Below are positions 6,576 through 22,504 of a stretch of DNA of 64,000 bases, piece by piece. The notes under the pieces are model-generated. The model was not told the DNA's origin, did no database searches, and saw only the letters and a list, made by a program, of their open reading frames with translations. Source of the stretch: a virus (Duplodnaviria; Caudoviricetes); IMG/VR virus record IMGVR_UViG_3300032038_000044, positions 25,221-89,220 of that record. One strand, 5' to 3'. Positions within the stretch are counted from its first letter, which is position 1. Each line of letters begins with the position of its first letter. Position numbers and translations under genes: made by a program.

Positions 6576-6654
6576 CTAGGTTGGGGAGGGAATGGGGGCT
6601 GAACCGATGGTTTACGCCCCGCCCAGCACATTTTAGGAACATAAAACCACAATT

Positions 6655-6737
6655 TTTGTGCAAATTTCACAAAAAAATAATCCTAAAGTGCTAAAAATAA
6701 CGAAAATACTGGCAGTTTTGCACAAAAACTGCCAGCC
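6655..6737 (+). repeat. cassette unit A (partial): TTTGTGCA box plus 27-nt hairpin 6709-6735
   Basis: CTGGCAGTTTT-GCACA-AAAACTGCCAG followed by CC; no consensus rightward promoter. Confidence 0.75.
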
Positions 6738-6754
6738 AGACGCAAAAAAGAGGT

Positions 6755-7093
6755 CTATTCAACCTCTTTTCCACCAAATTTCTCTACAAAATCCTGAAAA
6801 CTGTTATAATCATAGTCATTTAGATAAAAATCTTCTAACTGGTTAAGTGTATAGTCTGTCTCAAAATAGTAAGCATAATACCCGCCATTCTCATAAGCAG
6901 ACTCCTCATCTTCGTCTATACACTCATAGCTCTCGATAAGACCCCATATAAGGTCGCCGCCAATATCTCGCGCAATCGCTGCAAAGCGGTCTGTAGGTTC
7001 ATCTGGTTCAAGCTCTATAAACGTATAGTCATTGATACCATGTAGCCCCTGATAGTTACCCTCACAAGCTACTACAAACAAAATCTTATTCAT
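6755..7093 (-). CDS. hypothetical acidic protein
   Basis: ORF with GGAG RBS. Confidence 0.65.
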   Translation of the reverse strand: MNKILFVVACEGNYQGLHGINDYTFIELEPDEPTDRFAAIARDIGGDLIWGLIESYECIDEDEESAYENGGYYAYYFETDYTLNQLEDFYLNDYDYNSFQDFVEKFGGKEVE

Positions 7094-7103
7094 ATCTTTT
7101 CTC

Positions 7104-7418
7104 CTAATCTAATTTCCTTATATTATCATATACCTCGTAATACTGGCGGAAGTCCTCGGTATAGAGTTCCAGCTCTTCCTCGGTGGGCTTGTCTGTTTGC
7201 GATACCCACACAAACCAGCCAGCATCTCTGGCAAGTCTGCGCTCCTTTTCTGACCTCGTATAATTCTTGATAAGGTCAGCCACTGTCATTATGCGCATGT
7301 CCGCATATCCGTACGTATCATAGATGAACCGCCATTCGCGCCAGTCCTTGTGTGTGCGCTTGAATCTATATGCTATTTTCTTCCACACCTTTCTCTTAGG
7401 TGTTTTACAACCGAACAT
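7104..7418 (-). CDS. hypothetical protein
   Basis: ORF with AAGGAG RBS. Confidence 0.65.
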   Translation of the reverse strand: MFGCKTPKRKVWKKIAYRFKRTHKDWREWRFIYDTYGYADMRIMTVADLIKNYTRSEKERRLARDAGWFVWVSQTDKPTEEELELYTEDFRQYYEVYDNIRKLD

Positions 7419-7443
7419 ATATTCTCCTTTTATAGGGGGCGCA

Positions 7444-7809
7444 TTACTTTGCGCCCTTAGCCTTTGGTGGTCTGTGCTTTGTCAACTTGAGTGTGTACTC
7501 TGTTGTACCTTGCTTAAATGATACCTCAACCTCGTTCTTAACTGATATATCCGTGACATCAGAGAACTGACCGAGGGTTTCCGCCATCTTCTCAATGAGA
7601 ACTTTCTTCTCTTCGTCTATCTTGCGGACTACATTTCTTTTCTTCTTTTCTGTTGTTGCCTGAACATAGGTTTTAATCTCTGTCGCGCCCTGTTCCATCT
7701 TTGCCATCTCTAAGGCTTCTTCCCTAGTGACTGGCTCTCCATCCTCTTCACATTCTTTCATAATCTGTGTAACGAGAACTTCAATATCGACTTCTTTCTT
7801 CTTTGCCAT
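7444..7809 (-). CDS. hypothetical protein
   Basis: ORF with RBS and upstream promoter (unit B). Confidence 0.7.
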   Translation of the reverse strand: MAKKKEVDIEVLVTQIMKECEEDGEPVTREEALEMAKMEQGATEIKTYVQATTEKKKRNVVRKIDEEKKVLIEKMAETLGQFSDVTDISVKNEVEVSFKQGTTEYTLKLTKHRPPKAKGAK

Positions 7810-7844
7810 ATCCTATTTCCTTTCTTTTTTTATTTTCTAAAAAT

Positions 7845-7890
7845 ATTTTATCATATTTTCAAAAAATTTTCAATAGTAAAATTGCACAAA
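7845..7890 (-). promoter_or_regulatory. cassette unit B (left half only): leftward promoter plus TGCACAAA box
   Basis: -10 at 7845-7850, box at 7883-7890, same 33-bp offset as other units. Confidence 0.65.
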
Positions 7891-7919
7891 AATTTTTTAA
7901 TTTTTTGGTTGGGGAAGAT

Positions 7920-8642
7920 TTAATCTTCCCACAACAGTTTACGCATCTTCTTATGCTGACGATAGCAATATGCCATAATTTCCTTTTCTATCATTACATC
8001 TTCAAGCCCAGTATGAGCCTCTGTGAAGTCATTATCTCCACTAATGAAACGATATAGAATCTCTGCGGTGAATCTAGGCTTACCAGTCTTAGTTGCATAT
8101 CCATTATCCTGGCAGAATCTGATATATGTAGGCATCTTACCCACAACATCCTTAGCCATCTTGAGCGTATCGCAAATCTTGATATTAGGGTTGAAGAAGT
8201 AGCGATACTTTGACTTTGTAAGCCATCTCTGGGTATTCTGAACTGTGCCATAATCAAATCGTGCATTGTGAGCATATATCTCCTCTACACCATACTTGGC
8301 AATAACTTCATTGAAGATTACCCAAATATTGTAAAATGATGTTAAAGTTCTACGACCTGCCTTAATATCTTCCCAATACATAGGAACTTTACTTGCGTAG
8401 TATGCGGACTTCATTAATTCCTTTTCATTACAGAATATATCAGCATTAACAAATGAAAATGCTTCATATACGTTACCACGCTTATCAACTACTGCAAATC
8501 CAAAGTCGTATGTAAACATATTCCACGGACTTACCTCTGTTAAACCTCTATCGAGTGGACAAGTTTCTGTATCAAATACAATCTTATATGAGATACGGTG
8601 GTCTATCCAACCATTGTGATGTTTGTTTTCAATTTTCTTCAT
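7920..8642 (-). CDS. DEDDh 3'-5' exonuclease (DnaQ/RNase T-like)
   Basis: ExoI VFDTET, ExoII AHNARFD, ExoIII AHTGLEDV. Confidence 0.85.
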   Translation of the reverse strand: MKKIENKHHNGWIDHRISYKIVFDTETCPLDRGLTEVSPWNMFTYDFGFAVVDKRGNVYEAFSFVNADIFCNEKELMKSAYYASKVPMYWEDIKAGRRTLTSFYNIWVIFNEVIAKYGVEEIYAHNARFDYGTVQNTQRWLTKSKYRYFFNPNIKICDTLKMAKDVVGKMPTYIRFCQDNGYATKTGKPRFTAEILYRFISGDNDFTEAHTGLEDVMIEKEIMAYCYRQHKKMRKLLWED

Positions 8643-8761
8643 TTCTTTTTTCTTATTCCTTTCTTTCTTTATATACTTATTATAGCATATCTTGGAACTC
8701 TTGTCAACAACTTTTTTATTTCTTTTTTTTTGTTGTCCGTTCCTTTGTTTTCTATATTAGT

Positions 8762-8917
8762 ATTGTACCATACTAGGTGAGGTTTGTATAGTAGGCAATT
8801 TGCACAAAATTTAGGGAAAATGGTTGAAAATTTTTGTGCATAATTGCCTCTTGACAAAATCCCAAGACTATGTTATAATGGAAAATACTCGCCTTTTTGT
8901 GTGCAAAACGGCGAGGG
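8762..8917. repeat. cassette unit C: divergent promoters, box pair 8801-8840, hairpin 8888-8915 (28 nt)
   Basis: TTGACA 8851, TATAAT 8874 (17-bp spacer). Confidence 0.85.
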
Positions 8918-8938
8918 CAGTATAACCCTCGCCCGTCA

Positions 8939-9232
8939 TTATCTAATCACGCTCCATTTTATAGGCTCTTCAATCTCAATTTTTACATCAAAGACTACAT
9001 TATACATACCATGATAACAATCATGTATTATATCCAAATCTTCTAAAACTTCTTCATCTGCTTCATTACATACTGTATAGACATTATTATCTGATGTATT
9101 CAAATAACAATTATCAGTAATTTTTAAACATAAAGTATCAGGCTTATCATCCCAGACAAAGAAGCCACAATCTAGCTCATAAAAAGCTTTTCTTTCAATT
9201 TTATTATCCTTTTTCTGTTCAAAATTTAACAT
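8939..9232 (-). CDS. hypothetical protein
   Basis: ORF with AAAGGAG RBS. Confidence 0.65.
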   Translation of the reverse strand: MLNFEQKKDNKIERKAFYELDCGFFVWDDKPDTLCLKITDNCYLNTSDNNVYTVCNEADEEVLEDLDIIHDCYHGMYNVVFDVKIEIEEPIKWSVIR

Positions 9233-9244
9233 ATATTATCTCCT

Positions 9245-9688
9245 TTATTTCTGCTCAATTATATCCATAGGGTCTCTTTCATCTAGAGATAGATGAATAT
9301 TACCATCATAATCTCTTTTAAGATGGAAGTAACCTACTTCATCACACCCATTAGTCATCATAAGTGACTGTAAGTCGTTCTCAATTATCATCAATCTAAC
9401 TGTTTTACCAATGCCATAGGCATATCCACATTCCCAGGCAGTACCTGTGTCTCCATATAGACCATGGCTAATAACCCAGACCTCATCAGCTCGTTGTATA
9501 TCTTCCACATCGTGCTGAAAGACCTTTAGCCCCCATTCCGCATTTGGCATATCCATTCCGCAGTCAACTTCAAAGTCCATTGGGAATATAGGTGTAATAT
9601 CCTCACGGGCGTCAAGTTCTGCTCTAAGGGTCTTTAGAATATCTCTTTCCGTATCATTGAAGAATGGACTAGCAATATATACTACCAT
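9245..9688 (-). CDS. nucleoside 2-deoxyribosyltransferase-like protein
   Basis: VYIASPFFN, DVEDIQRAD, DTGTAWECGYAYGIGK motifs. Confidence 0.85.
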   Translation of the reverse strand: MVVYIASPFFNDTERDILKTLRAELDAREDITPIFPMDFEVDCGMDMPNAEWGLKVFQHDVEDIQRADEVWVISHGLYGDTGTAWECGYAYGIGKTVRLMIIENDLQSLMMTNGCDEVGYFHLKRDYDGNIHLSLDERDPMDIIEQK

Positions 9689-9951
9689 TAGAATAAGCCC
9701 CCTTTCGTAAGCATTAGTGCGAGTGTTAGACCGGTAAATAATACATCCTTAATCTTATCACTCATAGGTCTGTTAAGTGAGAATGTTCTATATGACGCGA
9801 TAATATTCGCTACCAAATAACAACCCTGACCTAACATATAGTTTTTACCAACGAGAACCTGCCCACATATTAGACCTATCATAATAATATAGTTGAGATT
9901 CTCAAATGCGCGTCTTAAACGCTTTGCTTCACTTTCTTTTCTCTTGTTCAT
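9688..9951 (-). CDS. small membrane protein
   Basis: About three hydrophobic segments; stop overlaps the start of the next gene. Confidence 0.6.
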   Translation of the reverse strand: MNKRKESEAKRLRRAFENLNYIIMIGLICGQVLVGKNYMLGQGCYLVANIIASYRTFSLNRPMSDKIKDVLFTGLTLALMLTKGGLF

Positions 9952-9981
9952 ACTTTCTTTTCCTTTCCTTTCTATGTATTT

Positions 9982-10050
9982 ATTGTATCATAGGTTGATG
10001 TGTTTGTCTATTGTGCAAATTGTAGGAAAATGCGGACTTATTTTTGTGCA
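9982..10050. repeat. cassette unit D (degenerate): leftward promoter plus box pair, no hairpin
   Basis: TGTGCAAA at 10012 and TTTGTGCA at 10043-10050. Confidence 0.55.
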
Positions 10051-10068
10051 AAATTTAATTCAATTCCT

Positions 10069-10542
10069 TTATTTATCTTCTTCATTTCTTGCCCATTCTC
10101 CTAACTTCTCTAATATTTCCACAACACGTGGATGTTCATTTGCAAAGTACACAGCCCAAAAGGTTGCCGCCACTTCGTCAGGTAATTTAAAATATTCCGT
10201 CTTTAAAATAGCAACATAGCCATCTATATTATCATCTTCTAAGGCTTCAATAGCTTTTTCAATTTTCTCCTTTTCCGCCATTATTTCTTCCTTTTGTTCA
10301 TCAGATATTCTTGGAAGTGTTATTGAATGACCTATCTCGTGTAATATAGATAAAGCAAAAGGACAATTAACTTTATATCCAAAAGTTGATTCAATATCTT
10401 CATTGAAAGCCCTATCTTGAATTTCATCACAATTTACACGATATGTTAAAGTATCATCATTTTCATCATACTGAAAATCATCTCCCTTAACCACATTCTT
10501 AATATTGAAATTGCGCTGGATGTATAATTCTAATGTATTCAT
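10069..10542 (-). CDS. HExxH zinc-metallopeptidase-like protein (paralogue 1)
   Basis: SILHEIGH plus downstream PDEVAATFWA. Confidence 0.65.
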   Translation of the reverse strand: MNTLELYIQRNFNIKNVVKGDDFQYDENDDTLTYRVNCDEIQDRAFNEDIESTFGYKVNCPFALSILHEIGHSITLPRISDEQKEEIMAEKEKIEKAIEALEDDNIDGYVAILKTEYFKLPDEVAATFWAVYFANEHPRVVEILEKLGEWARNEEDK

Positions 10543-10566
10543 TTACTTATCTCCTTTCCTTATGTA

Positions 10567-10690
10567 TTTATAATACCATAAAATTAAGGAAAATGCAACC
10601 TAAAAAAATGCACAAAATCACATTTGAAATTTTGTTGAAACTGCCTATTGACAAAAAATTTTGCTCGACTCGAATGAAGTCGAGCAACCC
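10567..10690. repeat. cassette unit E (short subtype): boxes, TTGACA without -10, hairpin 10661-10687
   Basis: TTGCTCGAC-N9-GTCGAGCAA, 27 nt. Confidence 0.8.
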
Positions 10691-10710
10691 AAAGGTTGCT
10701 CTTACCTCAA

Positions 10711-11976
10711 TTAGAGTTCATTAATATGAAGATTGATGATTTCATCAATAGCCTCAATCATAGGTACATCTACTGAACTAATATTTACATTGTTTCTATA
10801 TCTAGCTTCAACAGTAGCACCCTGTTCCTTGTTGAAACGGCAAGTTAAATATGATTTATCTGGACTTCCAATCTTTCGTATAAAATAGATATAATTTCTA
10901 CCCTCAAGAATAGAGCCATCATAGTAATAACCAACACAGTTGTTCTGCTGACGACCCTCATCAATCTTTTCAGCTTGGTTCTGTGGTACAATTACTATAT
11001 ACCCATCAAGCTTATGAGTATTAATGAAGTTAAGCTTCTGTAACTGAGCGCTCAGTTCTTTATTTCTAAGATTTTCAAGTAAGTTTTCAGCGTTTCTAAT
11101 ATTTACCCCTAGCGTTCTATTTGTATCTAAAGTGAACTCAAGTTCTTCTTGTCGTAAATCATCTACAACATCTATGAGGTCTCTAAGAAGCTGACTTATA
11201 CCATTTAATCTCTCAAAACATATTGTATTTTCAATTACTTTTAATAATTGACTAGGTGGTAATATATCAACCATATTTTTATAATTGTTTCTTATATCAA
11301 GACACTGAAAGATAAAACCTCTCTCTTTAGCTGAATAGTTAGAATAATCTCTATCCACCTGACACCTAGAAATAGCTATGCGCCAATTTCTACCATGTAT
11401 ATCTAAATACCTAGAAAAATTTTTAGGCATAACTTTTGGGTCAAAATTGTTACTTTTTAGTTCTTCTATAATAGATTTAACTTCTGTAAAGCTAGTTGCA
11501 TAATTGAAAATCCATTCATAATCAAATAATTTAATAATATCATCAAAAGAATTAAAACCACAATCAACAGTCATTCTGTAATTACCAAAGTCATTTTCTT
11601 TTGTGATAAAATCATAAGAAAACCGTCTAATCATGTGCATATTTTGAGCTTCAAAATTTAATATGTTCTTATTTTTATAAAATGACCTATAAGGATTAAC
11701 TATAGCTATATCTTTAACTATCTCATGTAATGACTTCTTATTTGGGTCATGGTCAACTATATATTTAATAGGAGACGGATATTGTACCTTATATTCAACC
11801 TGAAGTCTCTCAAGACTTGCCTTTATTGCTGGAGCATTAACACTACTATGGTCTAACTGTTTACAACAACTCATAGAAAATAATGCAACATCAGTTGTAG
11901 TAAAATCATTTACTCTTGAAATGATTACCTTTAACATATTATCCAATTCTTTCTTTTCATAATAATTTAATCCCAT
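10711..11976 (-). CDS. PcfJ-like domain protein
   Basis: C-terminal IIVPQNQAEKIDEGRQQNNCVGYY...IYFIRK...LTC pattern. Confidence 0.7.
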   Translation of the reverse strand: MGLNYYEKKELDNMLKVIISRVNDFTTTDVALFSMSCCKQLDHSSVNAPAIKASLERLQVEYKVQYPSPIKYIVDHDPNKKSLHEIVKDIAIVNPYRSFYKNKNILNFEAQNMHMIRRFSYDFITKENDFGNYRMTVDCGFNSFDDIIKLFDYEWIFNYATSFTEVKSIIEELKSNNFDPKVMPKNFSRYLDIHGRNWRIAISRCQVDRDYSNYSAKERGFIFQCLDIRNNYKNMVDILPPSQLLKVIENTICFERLNGISQLLRDLIDVVDDLRQEELEFTLDTNRTLGVNIRNAENLLENLRNKELSAQLQKLNFINTHKLDGYIVIVPQNQAEKIDEGRQQNNCVGYYYDGSILEGRNYIYFIRKIGSPDKSYLTCRFNKEQGATVEARYRNNVNISSVDVPMIEAIDEIINLHINEL

Positions 11977-12037
11977 TTTTTATTACCTATTTCCTTTCTT
12001 TTCTTGTAAAGATTTCTTACCTCTTCCTTATGTATTC

Positions 12038-12190
12038 ATTATACTACCTCTACCCTCTAATGTCAAACAAAAAAATGCACAAATTGCGGGAAAACTTTTT
12101 GACATTTTTTATGCAAATTTCCTCTTGACAAAACCGCCTAGGTGTGGTACAATGTTGAATATTGGTCGCGACGCGCGCTAGCGACCAACG
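12038..12190. repeat. cassette unit F: divergent promoters, boxes 12076-12115, hairpin 12162-12188
   Basis: TTGACA 12125, TACAAT 12148. Confidence 0.85.
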
Positions 12191-12199
12191 CAATAAAAA

Positions 12200-12500
12200 A
12201 TAGCCACTATCCACCTATTGCAATCAGTGAATAATGACTATTAGTGCGTGGTAGCCAACCACTAGTATGCTCTTCAGCGCTATTAACCTATAACTAGGGC
12301 AGGTTTCGTCACGCAAGAAACCTACAAACTGCCTCAGTGACTTTAGCGAACACTGCTCCGCTGCCCCTATCTTATCCAAGTTGGCTAACGCTTGGATAAC
12401 TGCTACTGTCAAGAAGTGTGAGGATTCGGACCTCTAATCCCATATATGACACCCCTAGTTTGTAAGGGGTAGGTAGTCATTCCTACCCCTAGCACCTATG
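12200..12500 (-). ncRNA. candidate structured ncRNA/3' UTR containing a tRNA-like minihelix (12412-12456) and a predicted kissing loop
   Basis: 300 nt with no credible ORF, at least 5 hairpins, T-loop GAGG-TCCGAAT-CCTC stacked on an 8-bp stem. Confidence 0.6.
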
Positions 12501-12504
12501 AAGA

Positions 12505-12837
12505 TTACTCTGCGAGAGAGTAAGCTGACTTCTTAGCATCCTTTACGACCTTACCAGCCTTAATAAGTCTACCAAGAGAAGCTGTTACCTTTGGAACTGA
12601 GCCAAATGCTTCGACATCCTTTGCAAAGATATTTGTTGGTGACATAGGCTCTGTACCAAGTACGGCAAGTACCTTTTCATCAATATTAGCCTGAGCCTCA
12701 GCTACCTTTTCAGACTTACCTGAATACTTCTTCACGATAGACTCCTTGAGTGCCTCAAGACGCTCCTTAACCTCTGCATCATCAACAACCTCAATTGCTT
12801 TCTCAAGTGCTACTTTGTACGAAATTTTCTTTTCCAT
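12505..12837 (-). CDS. small basic protein with C-terminal winged-helix-like domain (paralogue 1)
   Basis: MSPTNIF...VPKVTASLGRLIKAGKVVK wHTH-like pattern; preceded by stacked promoters. Confidence 0.7.
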   Translation of the reverse strand: MEKKISYKVALEKAIEVVDDAEVKERLEALKESIVKKYSGKSEKVAEAQANIDEKVLAVLGTEPMSPTNIFAKDVEAFGSVPKVTASLGRLIKAGKVVKDAKKSAYSLAE

Positions 12838-12923
12838 AGTTTTTTCTTCCTTTCTTTTTTGAAAAATGTTTTTGTTTCTTTACATCTTTATTATATCAGA
12901 TGTTTTTTACTTTGTCAAGAGGT

Positions 12924-12969
12924 TTTTTGAAATTGTTTTCAAATCTCACTTTGGATTTGTTATCTTTTC
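12924..12969. repeat. 46/47-bp repeat copy 1 (copy 2 at 24140-24186)
   Basis: 43 identical nt around a 3-4 nt variable core. Confidence 0.85.
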
Positions 12970-13077
12970 TTTACCTCTTTACATTTACTATTATAGCAAA
13001 TGTTTTGAAGTTTGTCAAGAACTTTTTTTATTTTTTTAATTTTTATTTTTAAGTTCTTTCCTTCACTTCTTGATTAA

Positions 13078-13231
13078 ATTATAGCAAAAAATTTTTCAAA
13101 TTACAATTAGTAATGTTGCACAAATTTTAGGAAAAGCCATTGAAAAATTTTGTGCAATTTTTCACTTGACAAAAAGCCTGGGAGTGTGGTATAATGGAAA
13201 TATTGCGCGTTTCTTGAGAAAACGCGCAACC
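13078..13231. repeat. cassette unit G: boxes 13117-13156, hairpin 13203-13229
   Basis: TTGACA 13166, TATAAT 13190. Confidence 0.85.
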
Positions 13232-13259
13232 AAATAAAAAAGAGGGGTTACCCCCCTCT

Positions 13260-13460
13260 TTATCTGTATGTAACACACATAATCTGTTCTATATCAATGT
13301 AAAGTGGCATACTACCTTTAAGCCCTTCAAACGAATAACCAGTAATCCTGCCATTAGTAAGGTCTACCTTAGCATAATTACAACGTATGCGCAAAGACTT
13401 TCCATTTTTAAAAATGATTAATGCACTTTTTATCTTTTTATCTTTCTTTTTACCAAACAT
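13260..13460 (-). CDS. hypothetical protein
   Basis: ORF, stop/start overlap with upstream gene. Confidence 0.6.
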   Translation of the reverse strand: MFGKKKDKKIKSALIIFKNGKSLRIRCNYAKVDLTNGRITGYSFEGLKGSMPLYIDIEQIMCVTYR

Positions 13461-13972
13461 TAAAACATTCCTTCAAATCCAATAAGTTTAGCAAATTTTT
13501 TTGGCTCTTTTTGAATAAATCCATTATCCTGAAGAAACTCTTTACACTCTTCAATAGGTAGTCTTGATACTACCATATCTAATGTCCAATGCTCTAATAC
13601 TATTACTTCTTTTTTGAATTGAAAAACATCATAAGGCTTAAACTTTGTAGTATATATACCAAAGTCATCAAACTCAGCATAGTATTTTGGTTTACTTGAG
13701 AATAAACCAAATTTAACTTTTTTAGAAATGGTTATTTCTAATTTTTGCTCTAAAGCTGTTTTCCAATTAAAATAATCGTGGGCGGTATTATAATCACTTA
13801 TATCTATACCAAGACCAAATAATTCTTTAGCAGGAATTAATTTTGTATCGAAGCTCTCTGGTATTTCTCCATAGCGTGTTTTTGTTGTAATTATGCTATC
13901 AACCCAATCTGATGAAATAAATTCACCATTTTTTAAAAGTTTAATTTCTGTATAATAAATTCCTTTACTCAT
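13460..13972 (-). CDS. hypothetical protein
   Basis: ORF overlapping neighbours. Confidence 0.65.
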   Translation of the reverse strand: MSKGIYYTEIKLLKNGEFISSDWVDSIITTKTRYGEIPESFDTKLIPAKELFGLGIDISDYNTAHDYFNWKTALEQKLEITISKKVKFGLFSSKPKYYAEFDDFGIYTTKFKPYDVFQFKKEVIVLEHWTLDMVVSRLPIEECKEFLQDNGFIQKEPKKFAKLIGFEGMF

Positions 13973-14153
13973 ATTCCCTTATTTCCTTTCTTAATTTATC
14001 GCGGCGGCGACCCTTGCGCCCAGTCTTGTACTTTTCAGAGACCCAAGCGCCGTTTCCGCATTGGTATGGATTGAATTTTTCCATATCTATAAGTGACTTT
14101 TCAATACTATCCATCACTTGAATTGTTTCTCTTCTTTTTCTCTTGTGAGCCAT
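13965..14153 (-). CDS. small basic hypothetical protein (start revised to MAHKRK)
   Basis: AAGGAGATAAGGTTATG leader. Confidence 0.6.
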   Translation of the reverse strand: MAHKRKRRETIQVMDSIEKSLIDMEKFNPYQCGNGAWVSEKYKTGRKGRRRDKLRKEIREYE

Positions 14154-14194
14154 AACCTTATCTCCTTTACATTTATAATTATAGCATAATGCTT

Positions 14195-14707: not shown

Positions 14708-14734
14708 AGGTCTTATCTCCTTCCTTATGTAATC

Positions 14735-14855
14735 ATTGTACTATGAATTGAGGGAATTGTCTAGTCGTCAGATTGCACAAAGTTCAAATCAAAAATTTGT
14801 TGAAATTGCCTATTGACATGAAATACTGTCCGGCGCGCTTGACGTCGGACAGCCC
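14735..14855. repeat. cassette unit H (short subtype): boxes, TTGACA without -10, hairpin 14826-14852
   Basis: CTGTCCG...CGGACAG, 27 nt. Confidence 0.8.
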
Positions 14856-14924
14856 AAACCATCAAAGCCCCCTACATTGCGTAGGGGGCTCTGAAAGGAA
14901 GGTATAAGGTTTTTCGTGTTAGAA

Positions 14925-14978
14925 AAGTGGGGAGGGGAGTTGCACCCCTCTAGCTAGGACTTTCTTCCTCGCCCACCT
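14925..14978 (-). ncRNA. tRNA-like element lacking an anticodon arm (54 nt)
   Basis: AGGTGGG/CCCACTT acceptor-like stem, AGGA-AGAAAG-TCCT hairpin, GAGGGG-TGCAACT-CCCCTC T-arm. Confidence 0.6.
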
Positions 14979-14983
14979 AGACA

Positions 14984-15322
14984 TTAGACAAGCTTGTAGC
15001 CTGTCTTTTTACCACTGATAGCAACCTTTTCAGCCTTGCCATCTGCAACAAGTCTTGTAAGTGATGCAGTAACCTTTGGTACTGAACCAAGTGCCTCAGC
15101 ATCCTTTGCGAAGATTGCAGTTGCTGACTGTGGCTCATCAGTAAGGACTGCAAGAACTGCCTCATCAACTGCTGACTGAGCCTGAGCGACCTTTTCTGAC
15201 TTTCCTGAATACTTCTTGACGATTGATTCCTTGAGAGCCTCTAATCTCTCCCTTACTTCCCCGTCTGCTACTTCCTCGATTGCCTTTTCAAGTGCTACCT
15301 TGTAACTCATTTTCTTCTCCAT
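14984..15322 (-). CDS. small basic winged-helix-like protein (paralogue 2)
   Basis: Clearly homologous to 12505-12837 (MEKK.SYKVALEKAIE, SVPKVTASL). Confidence 0.7.
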   Translation of the reverse strand: MEKKMSYKVALEKAIEEVADGEVRERLEALKESIVKKYSGKSEKVAQAQSAVDEAVLAVLTDEPQSATAIFAKDAEALGSVPKVTASLTRLVADGKAEKVAISGKKTGYKLV

Positions 15323-15527
15323 TTTTAATTACCTCTCTTTCTTTTTTAATGGATTTCTTTTTGTTTACATCTTTATTATAGCAAATTTTTTTAAGTCTGT
15401 CAACACTTTTTTTTATTTTTTTTAACAGACTTTAGAGGACTGTCAACCACCTAAAACAGTTAGCGTAGCCAACTTCCCACCGACCATCCTAGTAGTGCGG
15501 TTTCCGCATTTCCTCTTTACATTTATA

Positions 15528-15681
15528 AGTATAACAAATTTTAATTTTCTTTTCTATTGTTAAAATACACAAATTATAGGAAAAATCTTGGCTGTTTTTT
15601 GTGCAATTTTACTCTTGACAAAACTGCCAGGGTATGTTATAATGGTGAATACTGGGCATTTTGCGCGAAAATGCCCAGCCC
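15528..15681. repeat. cassette unit I: boxes 15566-15605, hairpin 15652-15678
   Basis: TTGACA 15615, TATAAT 15638. Confidence 0.85.
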
Positions 15682-15702
15682 ACTAAAGGCTAGGCATTGG
15701 AT

Positions 15703-16071
15703 TTAATCATCATAGCTAAAGTAGTAAACATCAACAACCTTTGTTTTCTCGAATCTTTCTCCATCCTCAGAAGTATAAACTACTGTTTCTTGTTTGCAAT
15801 CACAATAACTTTTTTTAAGTCTTACCCTTTTATCTGGAAAGGCTTTCATTAAGGCTTTTCCAATTAAACTGAGTCTTTCTTTAGGATTAAAACTACGGTC
15901 ATTGTCAATACTATTTTCTATTGTTTTTGATAGAACATAGTTACCAGTAAGTTTTGAAATATCTCTAGCAGTAAAATTCTGTGTATCGTCATTTTTTAGT
16001 TTCTTTAATGCAGATACTAATAAATCTAGTGTTTTTTCATTTATTTCTCTTAATGCTGTTCTTCTACTCAT
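15703..16071 (-). CDS. hypothetical protein, possible wHTH (start probably MSRR; track start 16098)
   Basis: FTARDISKLTG segment; GAAGAGG RBS. Confidence 0.55.
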   Translation of the reverse strand: MSRRTALREINEKTLDLLVSALKKLKNDDTQNFTARDISKLTGNYVLSKTIENSIDNDRSFNPKERLSLIGKALMKAFPDKRVRLKKSYCDCKQETVVYTSEDGERFEKTKVVDVYYFSYDD

Positions 16072-16630
16072 CCTCTTCACACTCCTCTTCATTATCATTA
16101 TACACTTCTTTTACTTTTTTTACAGCGCAAAAACAGTGTTCACTCTTACCTCTAAAAAGTACACTTCCATCATCGCCATAATATTTCTTTTTATTTGGCT
16201 TTAACTTGTATGTTACTTCATAACCGAGTTCTTCACTCTTCCAATAAGGAAGTTCACTTTGATGTATAAGTTTGCGCTCAAGTGTTTTAAGAGAAGTGAA
16301 ACTAATGTTTGCATTTTTATAAATCTCTTCCGGTGTAAAATACTCGCTAGGATTCTTTGCTAAAAATTCAAGACATTTTTTGTTTTCATCCTTAAGTATC
16401 ATACCTATGTACTCTGTAATCTCTGCCTCATTCATCTTAGTTAATAATGAAATAGTTGCAGGTTCAATATCATCTTCACCAACCCAAGCAGAAAAATTAT
16501 CATCTTCTACTAAATATTCTACCCTATATGTATATTCAGTATCAGTAATTTTGACAATTTGCCCCTCTAATAATCTACCTATTGACCTTGTCATAATAAC
16601 TTCGTCATTTACTTCATATTGAATTTTCAT
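16064..16630 (-). CDS. hypothetical protein, SH3-like N-terminus plus possible wHTH (start revised to MKIQYEV)
   Basis: YEVNDEV...GQIVKI...YRVEY pattern; FTPEEIY segment. Confidence 0.55.
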   Translation of the reverse strand: MKIQYEVNDEVIMTRSIGRLLEGQIVKITDTEYTYRVEYLVEDDNFSAWVGEDDIEPATISLLTKMNEAEITEYIGMILKDENKKCLEFLAKNPSEYFTPEEIYKNANISFTSLKTLERKLIHQSELPYWKSEELGYEVTYKLKPNKKKYYGDDGSVLFRGKSEHCFCAVKKVKEVYNDNEEECEEDE

Positions 16631-16683
16631 ATTTTTTACCTTTTCCTTTCTTTCCTTTATTATACGCTCTTGGCTTGAGGTTG

Positions 16684-17145
16684 TCAAGCCAATTTGCGTA
16701 AAATTTCAATAATATTTTCATTTGCATCAATGGTGTCGCCATTTTTCCAATTAACTCGGTTTGGTTCTTCATCATCAACTAAGATGCCTGTACCATATCT
16801 CTCACAGATAGCACTCTTATCAGTTCCGTATGGAACTATGATGACTTCATCAAGTAAGTCCATTATGAGATACTTTCTTAACCAATTCCTCTTTGCAAGG
16901 TCTATCTGCTGAGCATATATCTTATCACAACTTCTTGATAACCAAGATATAACTCCTAACTTATATCCCTTTGACTTGAGGTCAGCGAGAACTTCCAAGA
17001 ACTCAACAAGAGGATAGATAACCTTTGCTTTAACGTATGGGCGGACACGCTTGTTATTGAGGTCGTCTAACCAACCATCTACACCATAGAAGTCAGCGAG
17101 TGTACCATCCATATCAAACCATACCCATTTGCTTTCCTTATTCAT
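16684..17145 (-). CDS. HAD-superfamily phosphatase, 5'(3')-deoxyribonucleotidase-like
   Basis: Motif I WFDMDGTLADF, motif IV ILVDD. Confidence 0.8.
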   Translation of the reverse strand: MNKESKWVWFDMDGTLADFYGVDGWLDDLNNKRVRPYVKAKVIYPLVEFLEVLADLKSKGYKLGVISWLSRSCDKIYAQQIDLAKRNWLRKYLIMDLLDEVIIVPYGTDKSAICERYGTGILVDDEEPNRVNWKNGDTIDANENIIEILRKLA

Positions 17146-17178
17146 AACCCTTATCTCCTTTCCTTATCTTATGTACTC

Positions 17179-17342
17179 ATTATATACCCTTACACCCTAC
17201 CCCGTCAAGCATTTTCACATAAAAAATTGCACAAAATGCGGGAATGGCGGCGAGGGAACTTTGTGCAAGATTACCATTGACAAAACACCAAAGGGGTGGT
17301 ATAATTGAAAATACTGCCCGTTTGGAATGCGAACGGGCAGCC
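17179..17342. repeat. cassette unit J: boxes 17228-17267, hairpin 17314-17340
   Basis: TTGACA 17277, TATAAT 17300. Confidence 0.85.
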
Positions 17343-17365
17343 AATCACTCAAAAAAGGGGTAGAC

Positions 17366-17638
17366 CTAGGTCCAGCCCCTTTCCCGCTTTATTTCCTCAT
17401 AGCGTTTCTCATTTTCTTCTTTTATCTTCTCTTGGTCATATACTCTCATCTTGAGCTTAGTGTAGCCATACTTGTAAAGGTCAGCTTTAGTCCAGTACCT
17501 CTTTTGACAAATCTTGCCAAGCGCCTTTGGCTTGTAGTCGATTCCTTTATTCTTCAACCATTCTTTTGTTGGTACTTCGACTAATGTACTAACTGGCTTG
17601 TATCCTTTTGAACTAAAAACTGTAACCTGTACTTTCAT
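17366..17638 (-). CDS. hypothetical basic protein (start revised to MKVQVT)
   Basis: AGAGGT RBS. Confidence 0.6.
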   Translation of the reverse strand: MKVQVTVFSSKGYKPVSTLVEVPTKEWLKNKGIDYKPKALGKICQKRYWTKADLYKYGYTKLKMRVYDQEKIKEENEKRYEEIKRERGWT

Positions 17639-17699
17639 TACTTTACCTCTTTTCTTTTGATAAATCAATTATACCATACTTTGAATAGGGTGTCAACCC

Positions 17700-18104
17700 C
17701 TATTCAAGTTCAATGTATTGTATCGCATCAGCAACCTTCTTTGAATAATGACATTTCATAAAAGGGCTATTCACTGAATACTTGTAATTAGCAACCTTTT
17801 TGTTATACTCAGTAACCTTATCATAGAAAGTAGTTTTTGAAATATCTTCATAGGTTGATTTCATAGCTTTTGCCTGGGCTGTTAATGTTTGATACTCTAC
17901 TTGATATTCTGTTATTGTTTTATCTTGATTATACTTTGTGTGTACGTCTATAATATCTAAGACACTTATTATAAGTACAGCACCAAAGATGATACCAAAA
18001 AAGAGACATATAGTAAACGTCATATCTGCATCATTATGATATGCCCTAAACATAAGTACAACCATTAATAAAACTGCAATACCTGATAAAATTTCAATTA
18101 ACAT
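17700..18104 (-). CDS. membrane protein (2 TM plus coiled segment)
   Basis: Hydrophobic N-terminus; GTGAGG RBS. Confidence 0.65.
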   Translation of the reverse strand: MLIEILSGIAVLLMVVLMFRAYHNDADMTFTICLFFGIIFGAVLIISVLDIIDVHTKYNQDKTITEYQVEYQTLTAQAKAMKSTYEDISKTTFYDKVTEYNKKVANYKYSVNSPFMKCHYSKKVADAIQYIELE

Positions 18105-18119
18105 TTTCTTTACCTCACT

Positions 18120-18278
18120 TTACTTTTCATTCATTAAAGCCTTATATGTTCTATATATATAATCGGCTTTATGCGTATTTCTTACAAGTTCCTTAAACCA
18201 TACAACCCTTATAGAGTTCGCGCCATACTTGGCAACTAGGTCATTTATCAATTCGTCTTTTGTTATTTTCTTTTTCAA
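18120..18278 (-). CDS. small hypothetical protein (52 aa, TTG start)
   Basis: Manual translation MKKKITKDELINDLVAKYGANSIRVVWFKELVRN...; GGAAGGTGG RBS. Confidence 0.5.
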   Translation of the reverse strand: MKKKITKDELINDLVAKYGANSIRVVWFKELVRNTHKADYIYRTYKALMNEK

Positions 18279-18325
18279 TCTACCACCTTCCTTATTTTAT
18301 TCTTCTTTCCTTACCTTATGTACCC

Positions 18326-18481
18326 ATTATACACCCTCACCAATGTCATTACAAGGTGTAATAATGCACAAAATTGCGGGAGTTTCATCACTAATCTTTG
18401 TGCAACTTTCTACTTGACAAAACCACCCAAACCATGTTATAATAGAATTTACTGGTCGTTTGGAAAGCGAACGACCAGCCC
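18326..18481. repeat. cassette unit K: boxes 18365-18404, hairpin 18452-18478
   Basis: TTGACA 18414, TATAAT 18438. Confidence 0.85.
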
Positions 18482-18503
18482 AAGAAAGACTGGTCGTAAT
18501 TCT

Positions 18504-18923
18504 TCATAAGCAAAGAAAACTAAGTGAGTAAATATGGTTTGGCTCTAAATTTTCAAATGCTTTGCTTGTGTTAGGAAAAGCTGGAAGCCAGACAACGTCA
18601 TATCCCCAGATGCCACCATTAAGTGAAACATATCTTTGATTGTATAAAATTTGAAGAACATATTCAAAATTATTTTTTGGCGGTCTGCCTGGGCGATTCC
18701 TAGTTATTGGTTGTTTTAATTTTCTAATACCGGCAACTTTGTTTCTAAAAGGTGCAATAATATTCTTTATATATTCTCTCTCTTCTTCTGTGAGTACGTT
18801 TCTTCTTTCGCAAAGTGGAGCATCAAAGAAATTTTCTCTTGTATTACCATAGCGCCCCTCTTCTTTATCTTTTTTGGAGCGACCTTCATATCCAGTCCAC
18901 TCGATGTATTCTTTTTCTTTCAT
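18504..18923 (-). CDS. hypothetical protein, C-terminal domain shared with 19954-20379
   Basis: LTEEEREYIKNIIAPFRNKV...LPAF vs LDAVEKKYLSDVIRPFRSKI...LPYF. Confidence 0.65.
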   Translation of the reverse strand: MKEKEYIEWTGYEGRSKKDKEEGRYGNTRENFFDAPLCERRNVLTEEEREYIKNIIAPFRNKVAGIRKLKQPITRNRPGRPPKNNFEYVLQILYNQRYVSLNGGIWGYDVVWLPAFPNTSKAFENLEPNHIYSLSFLCL

Positions 18924-19193
18924 TTAAGCCACCACCTCTCTGCGTTCTGCCCTAAGTTCCTTAATTGACTTAGGACGCTCTTTCCACTTGCCAAGTTCAT
19001 CATCGAGTATCTGCTCAAAGACGCTTGGTCTATACACAAAACCCTCTTTGGCAGGTGTAATCGGTTTAAACTTACCCTTACAACCGAATGGCTCATTGAC
19101 CGGTACTAACTTGACCTGTTTAACAGTATCATTAGCGACCTCATTATAATTTGTTGTTACATCATTACCCTTTACATAAAATACAGTTCTCAT
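18924..19193 (-). CDS. hypothetical protein
   Basis: ORF with GTGAGG RBS and upstream promoter. Confidence 0.6.
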   Translation of the reverse strand: MRTVFYVKGNDVTTNYNEVANDTVKQVKLVPVNEPFGCKGKFKPITPAKEGFVYRPSVFEQILDDELGKWKERPKSIKELRAERREVVA

Positions 19194-19249
19194 ACCTTAA
19201 ATCCTCACTTTTATTTTTTTCTTTATTATATCATGGGGGTGACTAATTG

Positions 19250-19681
19250 TCAACCCTCATGTTCATTAATTTCTTTCTTAATTGCATTGATAGCAATTAA
19301 AATCTGTTCTTCAATAGTCGCACAAGTATTCTCATAGCTGAAAGATGTTTCATCCTTTATAGCCTCGATATATGACATTATCTCGCCAAGGTCGAAATAG
19401 TCCATCTCAAGCTTTGCAAGGTTAATACCCTTGACAATATCAAGACCATCTTCATCCTCACCCTCAAGGTATCCAACATACATCCAACGAGCATCCTCTT
19501 CTGATTCATCATAGAATGTAATATACATTCCATCAAGAAGATTGTCTATAACGACTTTATTCTGTGCAACCTTTTTAGCAATTTCTCTTAATAACTCACA
19601 AGCATTAACAAAAGCAACATTATATGCAAGTCTATCAAGCTCCTCATTATACTTCTTCATCATTTCTCCAAAAATACTCAT
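19250..19681 (-). CDS. hypothetical acidic protein
   Basis: ORF with AGGAAGG RBS. Confidence 0.65.
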   Translation of the reverse strand: MSIFGEMMKKYNEELDRLAYNVAFVNACELLREIAKKVAQNKVVIDNLLDGMYITFYDESEEDARWMYVGYLEGEDEDGLDIVKGINLAKLEMDYFDLGEIMSYIEAIKDETSFSYENTCATIEEQILIAINAIKKEINEHEG

Positions 19682-19716
19682 AATTTTGTACCTTCCTTCC
19701 TTAACTTTGTAAGCTA

Positions 19717-19872
19717 ATTATACACCCTAGCATGTAAATAAGTCATCTGACAAAATCACCAAAATAATGGGAACTTGTTTGTTAAAATTTGTATAATTTT
19801 CCCTCTTGACAAAACACCCTAACCTGTGGTATAATAGAAGCACTGCGCGTTTGAAGTGAAAACGCGCAGCCC
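19717..19872. repeat. cassette unit L: degenerate boxes 19756-19795, hairpin 19843-19869
   Basis: TTGACA 19806, TATAAT 19830. Confidence 0.8.
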
Positions 19873-19953
19873 AATCTCTCGGACTGCCTCGCTCTCACAC
19901 GACTTATTTTTGGTTAGGTAGTCGCCAAACCTAGACCTTAAAGGCGGTCGCGC

Positions 19954-20379
19954 CTATAACCCGAGGTCTTTTAGTGTGTACTTTGTTCCTATATCCATAC
20001 CTTTATACATATTGCTTTTGCCACTAAAGTATGGAAGGCAAACATGGTCTTTCTGAAGTTTAATCAGTATATAGTATTCACCAAAGCTGTGCTGTTTTGA
20101 AATGTATTCAATCTTACTTCTAAAAGGTCTGATAACATCACTTAGATATTTCTTCTCAACGGCGTCAAGCACCGGTGTGTGATATTCTTTGTTGAGAAAG
20201 TCCATTTCTCTTTTATCACAACTAACGCTATAACATCCATAATGCTCATCGTGACTACCCTCAATAACGCTCTTTAGAACTTCTCCGTCTATGTTATAGG
20301 CTAACACTTCCTTTACAAACTGTGGATGTTCTTTGATAATTACTTCAAAATTTGTCATTCTCTTATTCCTCACTCTCAC
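19954..20379 (-). CDS. hypothetical protein (paralogous C-terminus to 18504-18923)
   Basis: Shared motif, ends YTLKDLGL. Confidence 0.65.
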   Translation of the reverse strand: MRVRNKRMTNFEVIIKEHPQFVKEVLAYNIDGEVLKSVIEGSHDEHYGCYSVSCDKREMDFLNKEYHTPVLDAVEKKYLSDVIRPFRSKIEYISKQHSFGEYYILIKLQKDHVCLPYFSGKSNMYKGMDIGTKYTLKDLGL

Positions 20380-20680
20380 TTAATAATGTGTATGATACAT
20401 ATTTATCATCACTTTTCTTTGCAGTATCTTCGCAATCGAGCTTAACTCGAACCTCTGCCCCACACTGAAGCTCGTCTGAGTCAAACTCAATACGTTCTCC
20501 GTTGTTAGCAAGTACAGTAATCCAACCATTAACGTCAGTGATAACTGTGCCATCAACGTATCTATAATCTGTGGTTGCCTTGTATAATCTGCCAACTACC
20601 CATAAACCAGCTACTAATACAATAGTAGTAATAACTATACTAATGATACCGAATACTCTGTCAACTTTCTTTGTTTCCAT
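20363..20680 (-). CDS. membrane-anchored protein (1 TM plus beta domain)
   Basis: N-terminal TM helix; GTGAGG RBS. Confidence 0.6.
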   Translation of the reverse strand: METKKVDRVFGIISIVITTIVLVAGLWVVGRLYKATTDYRYVDGTVITDVNGWITVLANNGERIEFDSDELQCGAEVRVKLDCEDTAKKSDDKYVSYTLLSESEE

Positions 20681-20810
20681 AACCTTACCTCACTTATTTT
20701 CTTTAATTTATTATAGCAAATTTTTTTAAGTTTGTCAACAAGGGAATTACTAAGGTTGACTTTTCAAACTATGCTACTGAGTGCCATTCTGTTCCCTCTT
20801 GACATTATTA

Positions 20811-20965
20811 AGTATAACAAAACAAGAGAGAGAATACTACTGGCAAAATGCACAAAATTGCGGGAGGGGGCGACACCTAGGTTTGTGCATTTTTGCCATT
20901 GACAAAACCTCAGGACTGTGGTACAATGCAAATTACTGCACGCTTGGGGCGCGAGCGTGCAGCCC
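20811..20965. repeat. cassette unit M: boxes 20849-20889, hairpin 20936-20962
   Basis: TTGACA 20899, TACAAT 20922. Confidence 0.85.
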
Positions 20966-21013
20966 AATAAAAAATGGCTCGGAGTTTCACCGAGCCGTGG
21001 AGGAGGATTATGC

Positions 21014-21322
21014 CTAGCAGTAAACTAGGCTCATGTCTGCCCATTTTAGGATGCTGATTTGCTGACAATCTCTGCCGACTCTCAGCGCCTTTGTCTTGGT
21101 TGGTTCGCGGTGGCTTTTGTCGATGTAGTAAATGCCCTTGCTAAACCATACACCACAATTTCCATTGTATTCCTTGATGGCTTTCATAGCTTCCTCAGGT
21201 GTCTTGCACTCGACACCCTCTGTCGCTACTTGATAACCGGTCTTAAACTTAACGCGCTTACCATTCTTTAAAGTCATTCCGTCATCTTCCTTTAAGTTCT
21301 TAATACTTCTTACATTTATCAT
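21014..21322 (-). CDS. hypothetical protein
   Basis: ORF with AGGAAGG RBS. Confidence 0.65.
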   Translation of the reverse strand: MINVRSIKNLKEDDGMTLKNGKRVKFKTGYQVATEGVECKTPEEAMKAIKEYNGNCGVWFSKGIYYIDKSHREPTKTKALRVGRDCQQISILKWADMSLVYC

Positions 21323-21357
21323 AGGTTTGTACCTTCCTTTCCTTACCTTGTAACTAC

Positions 21358-21510
21358 ATTATAGCACGACACCCCACCGAGGTCCATAGGCAGATTGCAC
21401 AAAAATCGGGATACCCTTTAGCCTAAGTTTGTGCAAAATGCCCCTTGACAAAACACCCTGGGTGTGTTATAATGTGCGGCACTGCTCGCTGCGCAAGTTT
21501 GCGAGCAGCC
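21358..21510. repeat. cassette unit N: boxes 21396-21435, hairpin 21482-21508
   Basis: TTGACA 21445, TATAAT 21468. Confidence 0.85.
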
Positions 21511-21644
21511 AAACAAAAAAATAGGCTCCCGCCTCAGCGAGTGCCTATAAATTAGTGGTTTTTATCCCAGCCCACCCTGGTGGCTCATACTCTGTTTTAG
21601 TTGCGCCGATTACCTGGCTACAACAATTTGGAAGGTAGGTTATG

Positions 21645-21788
21645 TCAACCCACAGGAAGAACCTGTGGTGTTGTATGCTTATAGTAGTCCTTGAAGTCCT
21701 CTCTAGCCTTCTTCTCAACTCTTTCAGTTTCAAGCATTAAGAGCATCTTATCAAGTTCATCCATGTTATTATCAAATCCGTTCATCAT
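21645..21788 (-). CDS. small protein MDELDKML...REDFKDY (paralogue 1; start revised)
   Basis: Synonymous third-position differences vs paralogue 22341-22481 support this frame. Confidence 0.7.
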   Translation of the reverse strand: MMNGFDNNMDELDKMLLMLETERVEKKAREDFKDYYKHTTPQVLPVG

Positions 21789-21863
21789 AATTTTTATCCT
21801 CACTTTCTTCCTTAACCTTATGTCTACATTATACACTTTGTTGGGGGTGTTGTCAACACCTTT

Positions 21864-22082
21864 TTAGAAAATTCTTGTAAAACTTTTTCCGCTTTCAAAA
21901 GTACGGGTTGCACTGATTACCTTAGTTGTTGACTCATAACCAAGTACAGTAACCTTTCTGTTAGCTAATGCGCTAATGAAGTTGTCAGCATTGGCGTTAA
22001 GCTCCTTATTAGAGTTGAAGTTAATTCTCCTTGTCTTTATGCCGTTGCCATCTGTAAACTTAATAACTAAACTTGTCATCAT
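21864..22082 (-). CDS. hypothetical protein
   Basis: ORF with RBS. Confidence 0.6.
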   Translation of the reverse strand: MMTSLVIKFTDGNGIKTRRINFNSNKELNANADNFISALANRKVTVLGYESTTKVISATRTFESGKSFTRIF

Positions 22083-22116
22083 AACTGTTACCTACCTTTC
22101 CTTACCTTGTAACTAC

Positions 22117-22270
22117 ATTATAACAGAGGGTCAGAGCAAAATCCATATGTAAATTGCACAAATTTCGGGATGGTTTTTGCTTTACTATTGTGCAAAATCA
22201 ACAAACAAATATATCATATATCGCCTATATATCTAAAATGCGGCGCGTTTGGGGTGATAACGCGCCGCCA
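22117..22270. repeat. cassette unit O: boxes 22155-22194, no rightward consensus promoter, hairpin 22241-22267
   Basis: CGGCGCGTT-N9-AACGCGCCG, 27 nt. Confidence 0.75.
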
Positions 22271-22340
22271 ATCAAAAAAGGGCGCTATATGCGCCCCAGT
22301 GCGTGTTATTTGTTAGAGGTCACGCTCCCCGGAAGGTAGG

Positions 22341-22481
22341 TTATGCGCCAACCGGCAATATCACCGGTGTATGCTTCTTAGTATAGTCCTTGAAGTCCTC
22401 GCGCATCTTCTTCTCTACGCGCTCAGCCTCAAGCATCATCAACATTTTATCAAGTTCATCCATATTATCATTAGTAAACAT
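22341..22481 (-). CDS. small protein (46 aa, paralogue 2), not in ORF track
   Basis: MFTNDNMDELDKMLMMLEAERVEKKMREDFKDYTKKHTPVILPVGA. Confidence 0.7.
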   Translation of the reverse strand: MFTNDNMDELDKMLMMLEAERVEKKMREDFKDYTKKHTPVILPVGA

Positions 22482-22504
22482 ATTTTCAACCCTCTCTTCC
22501 TTAA

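Follow-up and report, generated by a model that had tools for sequence, protein, structure and literature searches.

A stereotyped 27-nucleotide hairpin at early cassette boundaries of uncultured SPbeta-like gut phages, a candidate gene-strand terminator or insulator

Hairpins, terminators and promoters of the early region

The stretch of DNA analyzed here, referred to as the window, comprises 64,000 nucleotides (nt) and corresponds to positions 25221-89220 of a single 89-kb contig (89,220 bp; IMG/VR record IMGVR_UViG_3300032038_000044). Its terminase is YonF-like and its relatives carry YonG, YonD and YonB domains, on which grounds the phage is regarded as an SPbeta-like siphovirus. From approximately position 24000 down through the region under study the genes lie on the minus strand, while the late genes occupy the plus strand from position 24647 onwards, the first of these (24647-25693) encoding a sigma-like protein (PHROG 5767). 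The junctions between the early gene cassettes on the minus strand are marked by a short, stereotyped hairpin, here designated H, which forms part of a larger repeated control unit, and this module is a fixed early-region feature of a very large clade of uncultured SPbeta-like gut phages.

Thirteen palindromes between positions 6709 and 22267 had been listed in an initial annotation of the window, and all of them were confirmed, in position as well as in length. Twelve span 27 nt, i.e., those at 6709-6735, 10661-10687, 12162-12188, 13203-13229, 14826-14852, 15652-15678, 17314-17340, 18452-18478, 19843-19869, 20936-20962, 21482-21508 and 22241-22267, while the copy at 8888-8915 spans 28 nt; all are treated here as elements of the minus strand, i.e., the gene strand, and are referred to by their first coordinate. 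A covariance model built from these copies and run against the whole genome recovered exactly the same thirteen (E values of 2e-4 to 4e-11), all matches being on the plus strand and the next-best match having an E value above 0.3. The proposal that the stems vary in sequence yet keep pairing was likewise borne out, since 89.5% of the alignment cells are paired, ten of eleven pairs have changed on both sides and none of 500 shuffles was as good, while slid registers reached only 34-43%. Folded on the gene strand, H has a stem of 8-12 bp and a stability of -11 to -15 kcal/mol. Rfam returned no match at the gathering score over the window, and a single chance-level match at E < 1 in the interval 6500-22600. 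Potential long-range partners of the H arms elsewhere in the window amounted to chance matches, with the exception of the local third arms described below.

H is located at the end of the transcription unit and ahead of the next promoter, at a median of 46-87 nt past the preceding stop codon and approximately 160 nt before the next start codon. A separate cassette terminator, designated T1, lies beside H at eight junctions and folds with it as tandem hairpins on the gene strand; T1 was located at 12199-12242 (a long hairpin, next to the copy at 12162), 13237-13261 (13203), 14862-14894 (14826), approximately 17357-17379 (17314), 20976-20996 (20936), approximately 21523-21546 (21482) and 22279-22297 (22241). 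None of the T1 hairpins of the window was flagged as a terminator on the plus strand. The five junctions that lack a separate T1 instead possess an alternative hairpin that overlaps H, at 8910-8933 (8888), 10682-10701 (10661), 15670-15698 (15652), 18471-18497 (18452) and 19866-19887 (19843), in which the 5' arm, present in a second copy downstream, pairs with the 3' arm of H and its CCCAA flank. This alternative hairpin is the first to fold on the gene strand and prevails in the minimum-energy structure, and in the case of 15670-15698 its one wobble pair forms on the gene strand only. Such a third arm is not a general feature of the clade, being found in one of 70 cases, which is the window's own.

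Both a GC-rich stem-loop and a U-rich tract directly 3' of it are present when H is read on the gene strand. In the window, the first 8 nt after the stem contain on average 4.1 U residues on the gene strand and 0.8 on the plus strand, and a consensus scan for terminators flagged four of the thirteen copies on the minus strand, among them the copy at 6709 with its U-rich tail, and none on the plus strand. The U-richness of the H tail did not differ according to the presence of T1 (4.0 versus 4.2), and there is thus no sign of one compensating for the other.

Nine of the thirteen hairpins adjoin a sigma-A consensus promoter, designated P_L, whose direction is opposite to that of the early genes on the minus strand. 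These plus-strand promoters are located at 8851-8879 (before the copy at 8888), 13166-13195 (13203), 15615-15643 (15652), 17277-17305 (17314), 18414-18443 (18452), 19806-19835 (19843) and 21445-21473 (21482), all with a score of 12 out of 12, and at 12125-12153 (12162) and 20899-20927 (20936), both with a score of 11 out of 12. They usually display a TG extension, and the -10 box ends 7-8 nt before the stem. No credible plus-strand open reading frame (ORF) follows any of the nine, the genes here being on the minus strand. The initial annotation was therefore correct in describing near-consensus rightward promoters with no ORF behind them, and the association of promoter and hairpin stands for these nine copies, classified as type A; it does not extend to 10661 and 14826 (type B), where a TTGACA box is found 7 nt before the stem with no -10 box, nor to 6709 and 22241, whose plus-side promoters are degenerate. 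The idea that type B copies use the hairpin loop as a -10 box was rejected by inspection, as no -10-like hexamer occurs at 16-18 nt. Judging from their sequence, the nine P_L copies are likely to give rise to plus-strand transcripts.

The hairpin is only one part of the repeat unit, which contains back-to-back promoters with inverted TTTGTGCA boxes, the second promoter driving the minus-strand genes. Read on the plus strand, the unit comprises the minus-strand gene promoter and its ribosome site, both in reverse complement, then a TGCACAA box, approximately 26 nt, a TTTGTGCA box, the -35 box, the -10 box, 7-8 nt, H and the CC(C)AA flank, after which comes the preceding minus-strand cassette, entered at its 3' end. 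The distance from H to the co-directional gene promoter is approximately 100-130 nt, the inverted TTTGTGCA boxes lying in between. In the units between 8800 and 22200 the inverted TGCACAA and TTTGTGCA boxes between the two promoters are accompanied by a conserved A/T-rich CGGGA motif (e.g., at 17228-17266), and the TGCACAA boxes, the TTTGTGCA boxes and the CGGGA motif are also kept in distant members of the clade.

Distribution of the module among related phages

The sigma-like gene that accompanies the module is encoded by at least 465 IMG/VR contigs, including the contigs found via the promoter motif, and 1473 homologs of its product are present in the database. The upstream part of the unit matches at least 118 IMG/VR stretches, most of which keep the order of promoter, 7-8 nt, a GC-rich hairpin of approximately 27 nt and CC(A)AA. 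Single-protein queries with the PcfJ-like and sigma-like proteins gave no related loci, whereas an alignment of sigma homologs did. No close DNA relatives were found among deposited phages, and SPbeta, Phass-1 and Enterococcus phage VRE9_2, the nearest cultured relatives with a sigma protein that is 36% identical, were checked for the module and proved to lack it. A contig pattern scan yielded mostly chance matches, in addition to metagenome-assembled genomes of Oscillospiraceae, Ruminococcus and Acutalibacteraceae, and the hosts are probably uncultured gut Oscillospirales.

For 62 loci the direction could be fixed by means of the sigma-like gene, and the 545 kb upstream of it code for 311 kb on the minus strand versus 34 kb on the plus strand. 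Within these loci, a pattern that did not demand pairing at the variable positions found the hairpin 79 times in the direction seen in the window and seven times in reverse (p = 2e-16). The free, i.e., unconstrained, stem positions were nonetheless Watson-Crick paired in 258 of 280 cells (92%). The family consensus has C1, G3, C6, G7 and, in the loop, G12 as its conserved positions and is bordered by an A-run on the left-hand side and by CCA on the right-hand side. G12 is kept in one orientation in 54 of 62 cases, and apical motifs recur on differing stems. Outside the window the stem is usually 8-9 bp and the loop approximately 11 nt, the modal length being 27 nt with lengths of 25-29 nt also occurring.

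In a set of 195 distinct units, a left (backward) promoter is present in 77 and a right promoter in 46, while 100 have neither. The left promoter lies 7-9 nt from the stem in all 77 cases, the stem starting exactly 7-8 nt past the -10 box in 76 of them, and the right promoter, which is co-directional with the genes, is separated from the stem by 2-3 nt. In 53 of the 195 units, classified as type B, the stem has a TTGACA box at a distance of 5-7 nt but no -10 box; among the 62 oriented loci, the 18 hairpins that are type B only do not fall short in stem length of the 45 that are type A only. A gene was found less than 200 nt behind 42 of 67 promoters without a hairpin, compared to 17 of 88 promoters with one (Fisher p = 5e-8). 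Of the 195 units, 119 have at least four U residues in the first 7 nt after the stem on the gene strand, compared to 11 on the promoter strand, and the A-run on the left of H is kept regardless of the sequence upstream of it.

In many relatives of higher GC content (L055, L070, L021, L101 and L040), H is placed between two full promoters that face each other. The -10 boxes of these promoters are approximately 37 bp apart, and RNA polymerase is therefore probably unable to occupy both at once.

Terminator, antisense promoter or recognition site

H is interpreted here as a Rho-independent terminator or insulator of conserved shape that acts on the gene strand and occupies the 3' end of each early cassette, a reading that is preferred to its rivals and is given about an even chance of being correct. 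The order of elements in the gene direction is the stop codon, T1 (at eight junctions) or the hairpin overlapping H (at five), a few bases, H and its U-rich tail, beyond which lies the divergent control unit with the minus-strand promoter that starts the next cassette. H would stop any RNA polymerase that has passed T1, and so keep it from entering and occluding the next control unit. At nine of the thirteen junctions P_L points back at H, which places H at the predicted P_L start site; RNAs initiated there would begin with the H stem-loop at their 5' terminus and extend, in antisense orientation, into the last part of the preceding cassette. P_L might represent an antisense device, a means of enforcing termination by collision, or the half of a symmetric promoter unit that stands idle. 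As P_L is found at only part of the junctions, it would be a frequent add-on and not the reason for the existence of the hairpin. In those relatives that have the promoter-hairpin-promoter arrangement, the co-directional promoter is predicted to start inside H, and its transcripts would thereby escape termination at H.

The fixed orientation of H relative to the genes, together with the U tract on the gene strand, points to a role in transcription. Selection on the hairpin independently of P_L is indicated by comparison with a relative (L241) whose sigma protein is 96% identical to that of the window: in the ortholog of the copy at 22241, which has no consensus promoter, the closing pair C1-G27 has become U1-A27, and this compensatory change implies that the pairing is under selection without a promoter.

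Several observations nevertheless weigh against a plain terminator. A stem of 8 bp with a loop of 11 nt is unusual for an efficient intrinsic terminator, and the tail of type A copies is modest, at 3.3 U residues out of 7, with only 42% reaching at least four; furthermore, the first one or two bases of the H tail are, in the family at large, often A or C rather than U. The A-run of type B copies may simply derive from conserved bases after the TTGACA box. The mean stability of H in the window is greater for the plus-strand RNA than for the other strand (-15.3 versus -13.5 kcal/mol). A terminator function also leaves unexplained the modal length of 27 nt, the conservation of C1, G3, C6, G7 and G12, and the exact spacing of 7-8 nt to a full-consensus promoter across very divergent phages, and it does not account for the need of a second stereotyped terminator behind T1. 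It is on account of these points that two further explanations, one based on the plus-strand RNA and one on recognition by a factor, are retained.

The first of these holds that the RNAs transcribed from P_L are themselves the product, the hairpin forming a 5' cap against 5' exonuclease, and that they serve as small RNAs or decoys, or as antisense RNAs of the phage lambda OOP type, possibly by pairing with the 3' end of the mRNA of the preceding cassette and so causing its decay. This explanation, in which the small-RNA and antisense versions are taken together, is considered unlikely. It would account for a P_L that matches the consensus in each of its elements and is kept across hundreds of phages, for the lack of an ORF behind 71 of 88 hairpin-bearing promoters and for the start of the stem at the expected transcription start in 76 of 77 left promoters. 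The unit at 20936 is in agreement with it, the -35 box, the spacer and the -10 box being kept between the window and L241 while adjacent bases changed, the hairpin itself also being unchanged though its flanks differ. On the other hand, it can apply to at most approximately 40% of the units (77 of 195), and the hairpins without a promoter are intact and under selection. A U tract follows H on the plus strand in 11 of 195 units, and follows T1 on that strand in 3 of 24 type A units.

The latter counts bear on the main inference of the initial annotation, namely that the phage produces about ten plus-strand hairpin RNAs of 45-90 nt, each of which runs head-on into the terminator of the neighboring cassette. 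As a common function of the family such RNAs find no support, given that 100 of the 195 hairpins have no adjacent promoter, that four of the thirteen copies in the window likewise lack one, and that the U tract is on the gene strand and not on the plus strand. The proposed head-on termination is also at odds with the data, just 3 of the 24 T1 hairpins having a plus-strand U tract; with T1 and H mostly devoid of such a tract, plus-strand transcripts are expected to run on as antisense RNA and not to form short, defined species of 45-90 nt. Among the roles that had been listed, that of an insulator against read-through has become part of the reading preferred here, while a small-RNA system as the principal one has not been sustained. 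The G.U pairs that had been reported to form only on the plus strand, in the copies at 14826, 17314, 18452 and 20936, are real, make the plus-strand RNA of these four copies 3-5 kcal/mol more stable and favor a plus-strand product as far as the window is concerned. No excess of plus-strand wobbles exists in the clade, however (3 on the plus strand versus 7 on the gene strand at stem positions; 8 versus 11), and the four cases are a local trait common to related copies. A further point in favor of plus-strand RNAs is found at 24529-24551, where a hairpin that resembles a terminator and has a T-run on the plus strand immediately precedes the late-operon promoter (24566-24594), although no plus-strand gene lies upstream of it; this hairpin could halt antisense transcription that arrives from the early region. 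The absence of a matching Rfam family, by contrast, speaks against this explanation.

According to the second explanation, which is regarded as less probable again, H is a recognition hairpin, either in the gene-strand RNA or as extruded DNA, for a factor specific to the clade. Such a factor could for example be an antiterminator or a terminator-enhancing protein that times read-through between early cassettes, in which case the shape of H would reflect recognition by a protein. The modal length of 27 nt, the fixed C1, G3, C6 and G7 with covarying free positions between them, the single orientation of G12 and the recurrence of apical motifs on different stems are all compatible with such a role, as is the confinement of the module to the clade with the sigma-like gene, as judged by its absence from the three cultured phages checked for it. 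However, no protein could be put forward as a binding candidate; hairpins of 25-29 nt are also found, and the conserved features could equally result from common descent combined with selection for GC-rich stems in an AT-rich genome. That the backward promoters and H together constitute a genuine multi-copy regulatory system, whether a many-fold, OOP-like antisense shut-off with one hairpin-capped RNA per early cassette or a series of uniform recognition sites for a clade-specific RNA-binding factor that controls read-through, is considered improbable, if less so than either specific version. If true, either form would amount to a mode of early-gene timing not yet described, in a very large clade of uncultured gut phages.

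Very unlikely is the possibility that H is a DNA element with no role in transcription, i.e., a recombination or transposition site resembling attC, repetitive extragenic palindrome (REP) or miniature inverted-repeat transposable elements, or the center of palindromic promoter duplications. The stems are nearly all perfectly Watson-Crick paired, with few wobbles on either strand (the 258 of 280 cells noted above), some relatives contain promoter-hairpin-promoter palindromes, and one end of the cassette swap described below adjoins H, all of which such an element would explain. Yet the breakpoints fit ordinary homologous recombination in conserved promoter sequence, with H itself outside the homology, and the flanks of H are an A-run and CCAA, with neither the GTAG of REP nor an attC-type core; furthermore, orientation and U tract favor a transcriptional role. 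Neither a REP-associated tyrosine transposase nor an integron integrase was present among 30 proteins of the window and genome that were scanned, the genome not having been searched exhaustively. A tRNA-like minihelix, suggested by the CCA after the stem, was rejected since relatives often have TCA and the stem and loop sizes are unfit, as was DNA uptake driven by backward promoters in the manner of phage T7, because units in both promoter arrangements occur in relatives.

Known systems, cassette exchange and neighboring features

Tandem or back-up Rho-independent terminators are a general notion rather than a curated family. H resembles them in being a GC-rich stem-loop with a U-rich tract on the transcribed strand, located after a stop codon and a first terminator; it differs from them in its loop of approximately 11 nt, in first tail bases that are often not U, in its conserved sequence positions, and in the overlap of its tail with the start region of a consensus promoter that is convergent with it. 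The OOP RNA of phage lambda (pO-oop-tO) is a short antisense RNA convergent with cII, and is a single RNA with its own terminator. The units described here share with it a promoter aimed at the 3' end of the upstream gene, judged from sequence in nine of thirteen junctions of the window and 77 of 195 units of the clade, but differ in that each genome has at least nine such promoters, most of which face no terminator that works in their direction, and in that the hairpin also occurs with no promoter.

The promoter-early stem-loop (PeSL) elements of T4-type phages are composite terminator/promoter cassettes (PMC2839356, PMC4122927), for which a model of gene shuffling via recombination between repeated control sequences has been put forward (PMC4122927, PMC2839356). 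Similar to PeSL elements, the present units are short and repeated, combine a stem-loop with a host-type early promoter and are situated between small early genes of unknown function, and genes have been gained, lost or replaced at them, as seen in single events between the window and L241 and between two further relatives (L270 and L280). In PeSL elements, however, the stem-loop lies next to the gene-strand promoter, whereas here the promoter touching H faces backwards; a stem-loop directly upstream of a gene-strand promoter is found in only some of the relatives, at a distance of 2-3 nt. The phage described here also differs in having a Gram-positive gut host, in being an SPbeta-like siphovirus and in the stereotyped 27-nt form of its hairpin. 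A further system, SPBRE, is the 15-bp repeated operator of the SPbeta repressor MrpR and constitutes a protein-binding motif (PMC10516654). It is likewise a repeated regulatory element in the early intergenic regions of an SPbeta-type phage, but it is not a hairpin, and any analogue of it in the present units would be the TTTGTGCA boxes. By this analogy, the inverted boxes may act as an operator; in SPbeta itself, which was checked, neither the TTTGTGCA boxes nor the hairpins are present.

The repeated control units are patches of homology at which related phages swap cassettes. Between the window and L241, similarity extends up to the P_L -10 box at 21473, the left breakpoint of the swap, and resumes from 22108 in the leader and promoter of the next gene; the segment between these two points, comprising the copy at 21482, its T1 and the genes of the cassette on its right-hand side, has been replaced in L241. 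A 950-nt cassette with two copies of a repeated promoter at its ends has been inserted or deleted between L270 and L280 (L270:830-870 and 1825-1850; L280:1340-1372). Both exchanges are single events and not the outcome of a survey; they agree with the shuffling model for PeSL elements, from which the units nevertheless differ in geometry. The sub-branch to which L270 and L280 belong displays repeated minus-strand gene promoters with a short GC hairpin over the -35 box.

Composite terminator/promoter units at cassette boundaries are of a known kind, while the H module is very widespread and had not been described, its function probably being an ordinary one. The module marks cassette boundaries and transcription units in the genomes of the clade and explains where relatives exchange early genes, and it also cautions that units composed of an orphan promoter plus a hairpin need not be small-RNA genes.

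Some neighboring features deserve mention. Within the early region a single plus-strand gene of appreciable size occurs (5465-6154), adjacent to the first hairpin; its product, which had no match in Pfam or PHROG, could regulate the control units. The first approximately 5 kb of the contig (positions 1-5000, upstream of the window) contain almost no ORFs with ribosome-binding sites and may represent a non-coding or terminal region, and ARAGORN detected no tRNA genes in the window. The C-terminus of the sigma-like protein possesses four invariant cysteines, i.e., C312, C315, C340 and C343 in the numbering of the homolog alignment. Finally, an RNA-repair-like gene set, comprising two RNA ligases, a Thg1-like tRNA-His guanylyltransferase and a metallophosphoesterase, is encoded on the minus strand at L001:13790-14869, L001:15159-15938, L002:3220-4035 and positions 578-1495 of the window.

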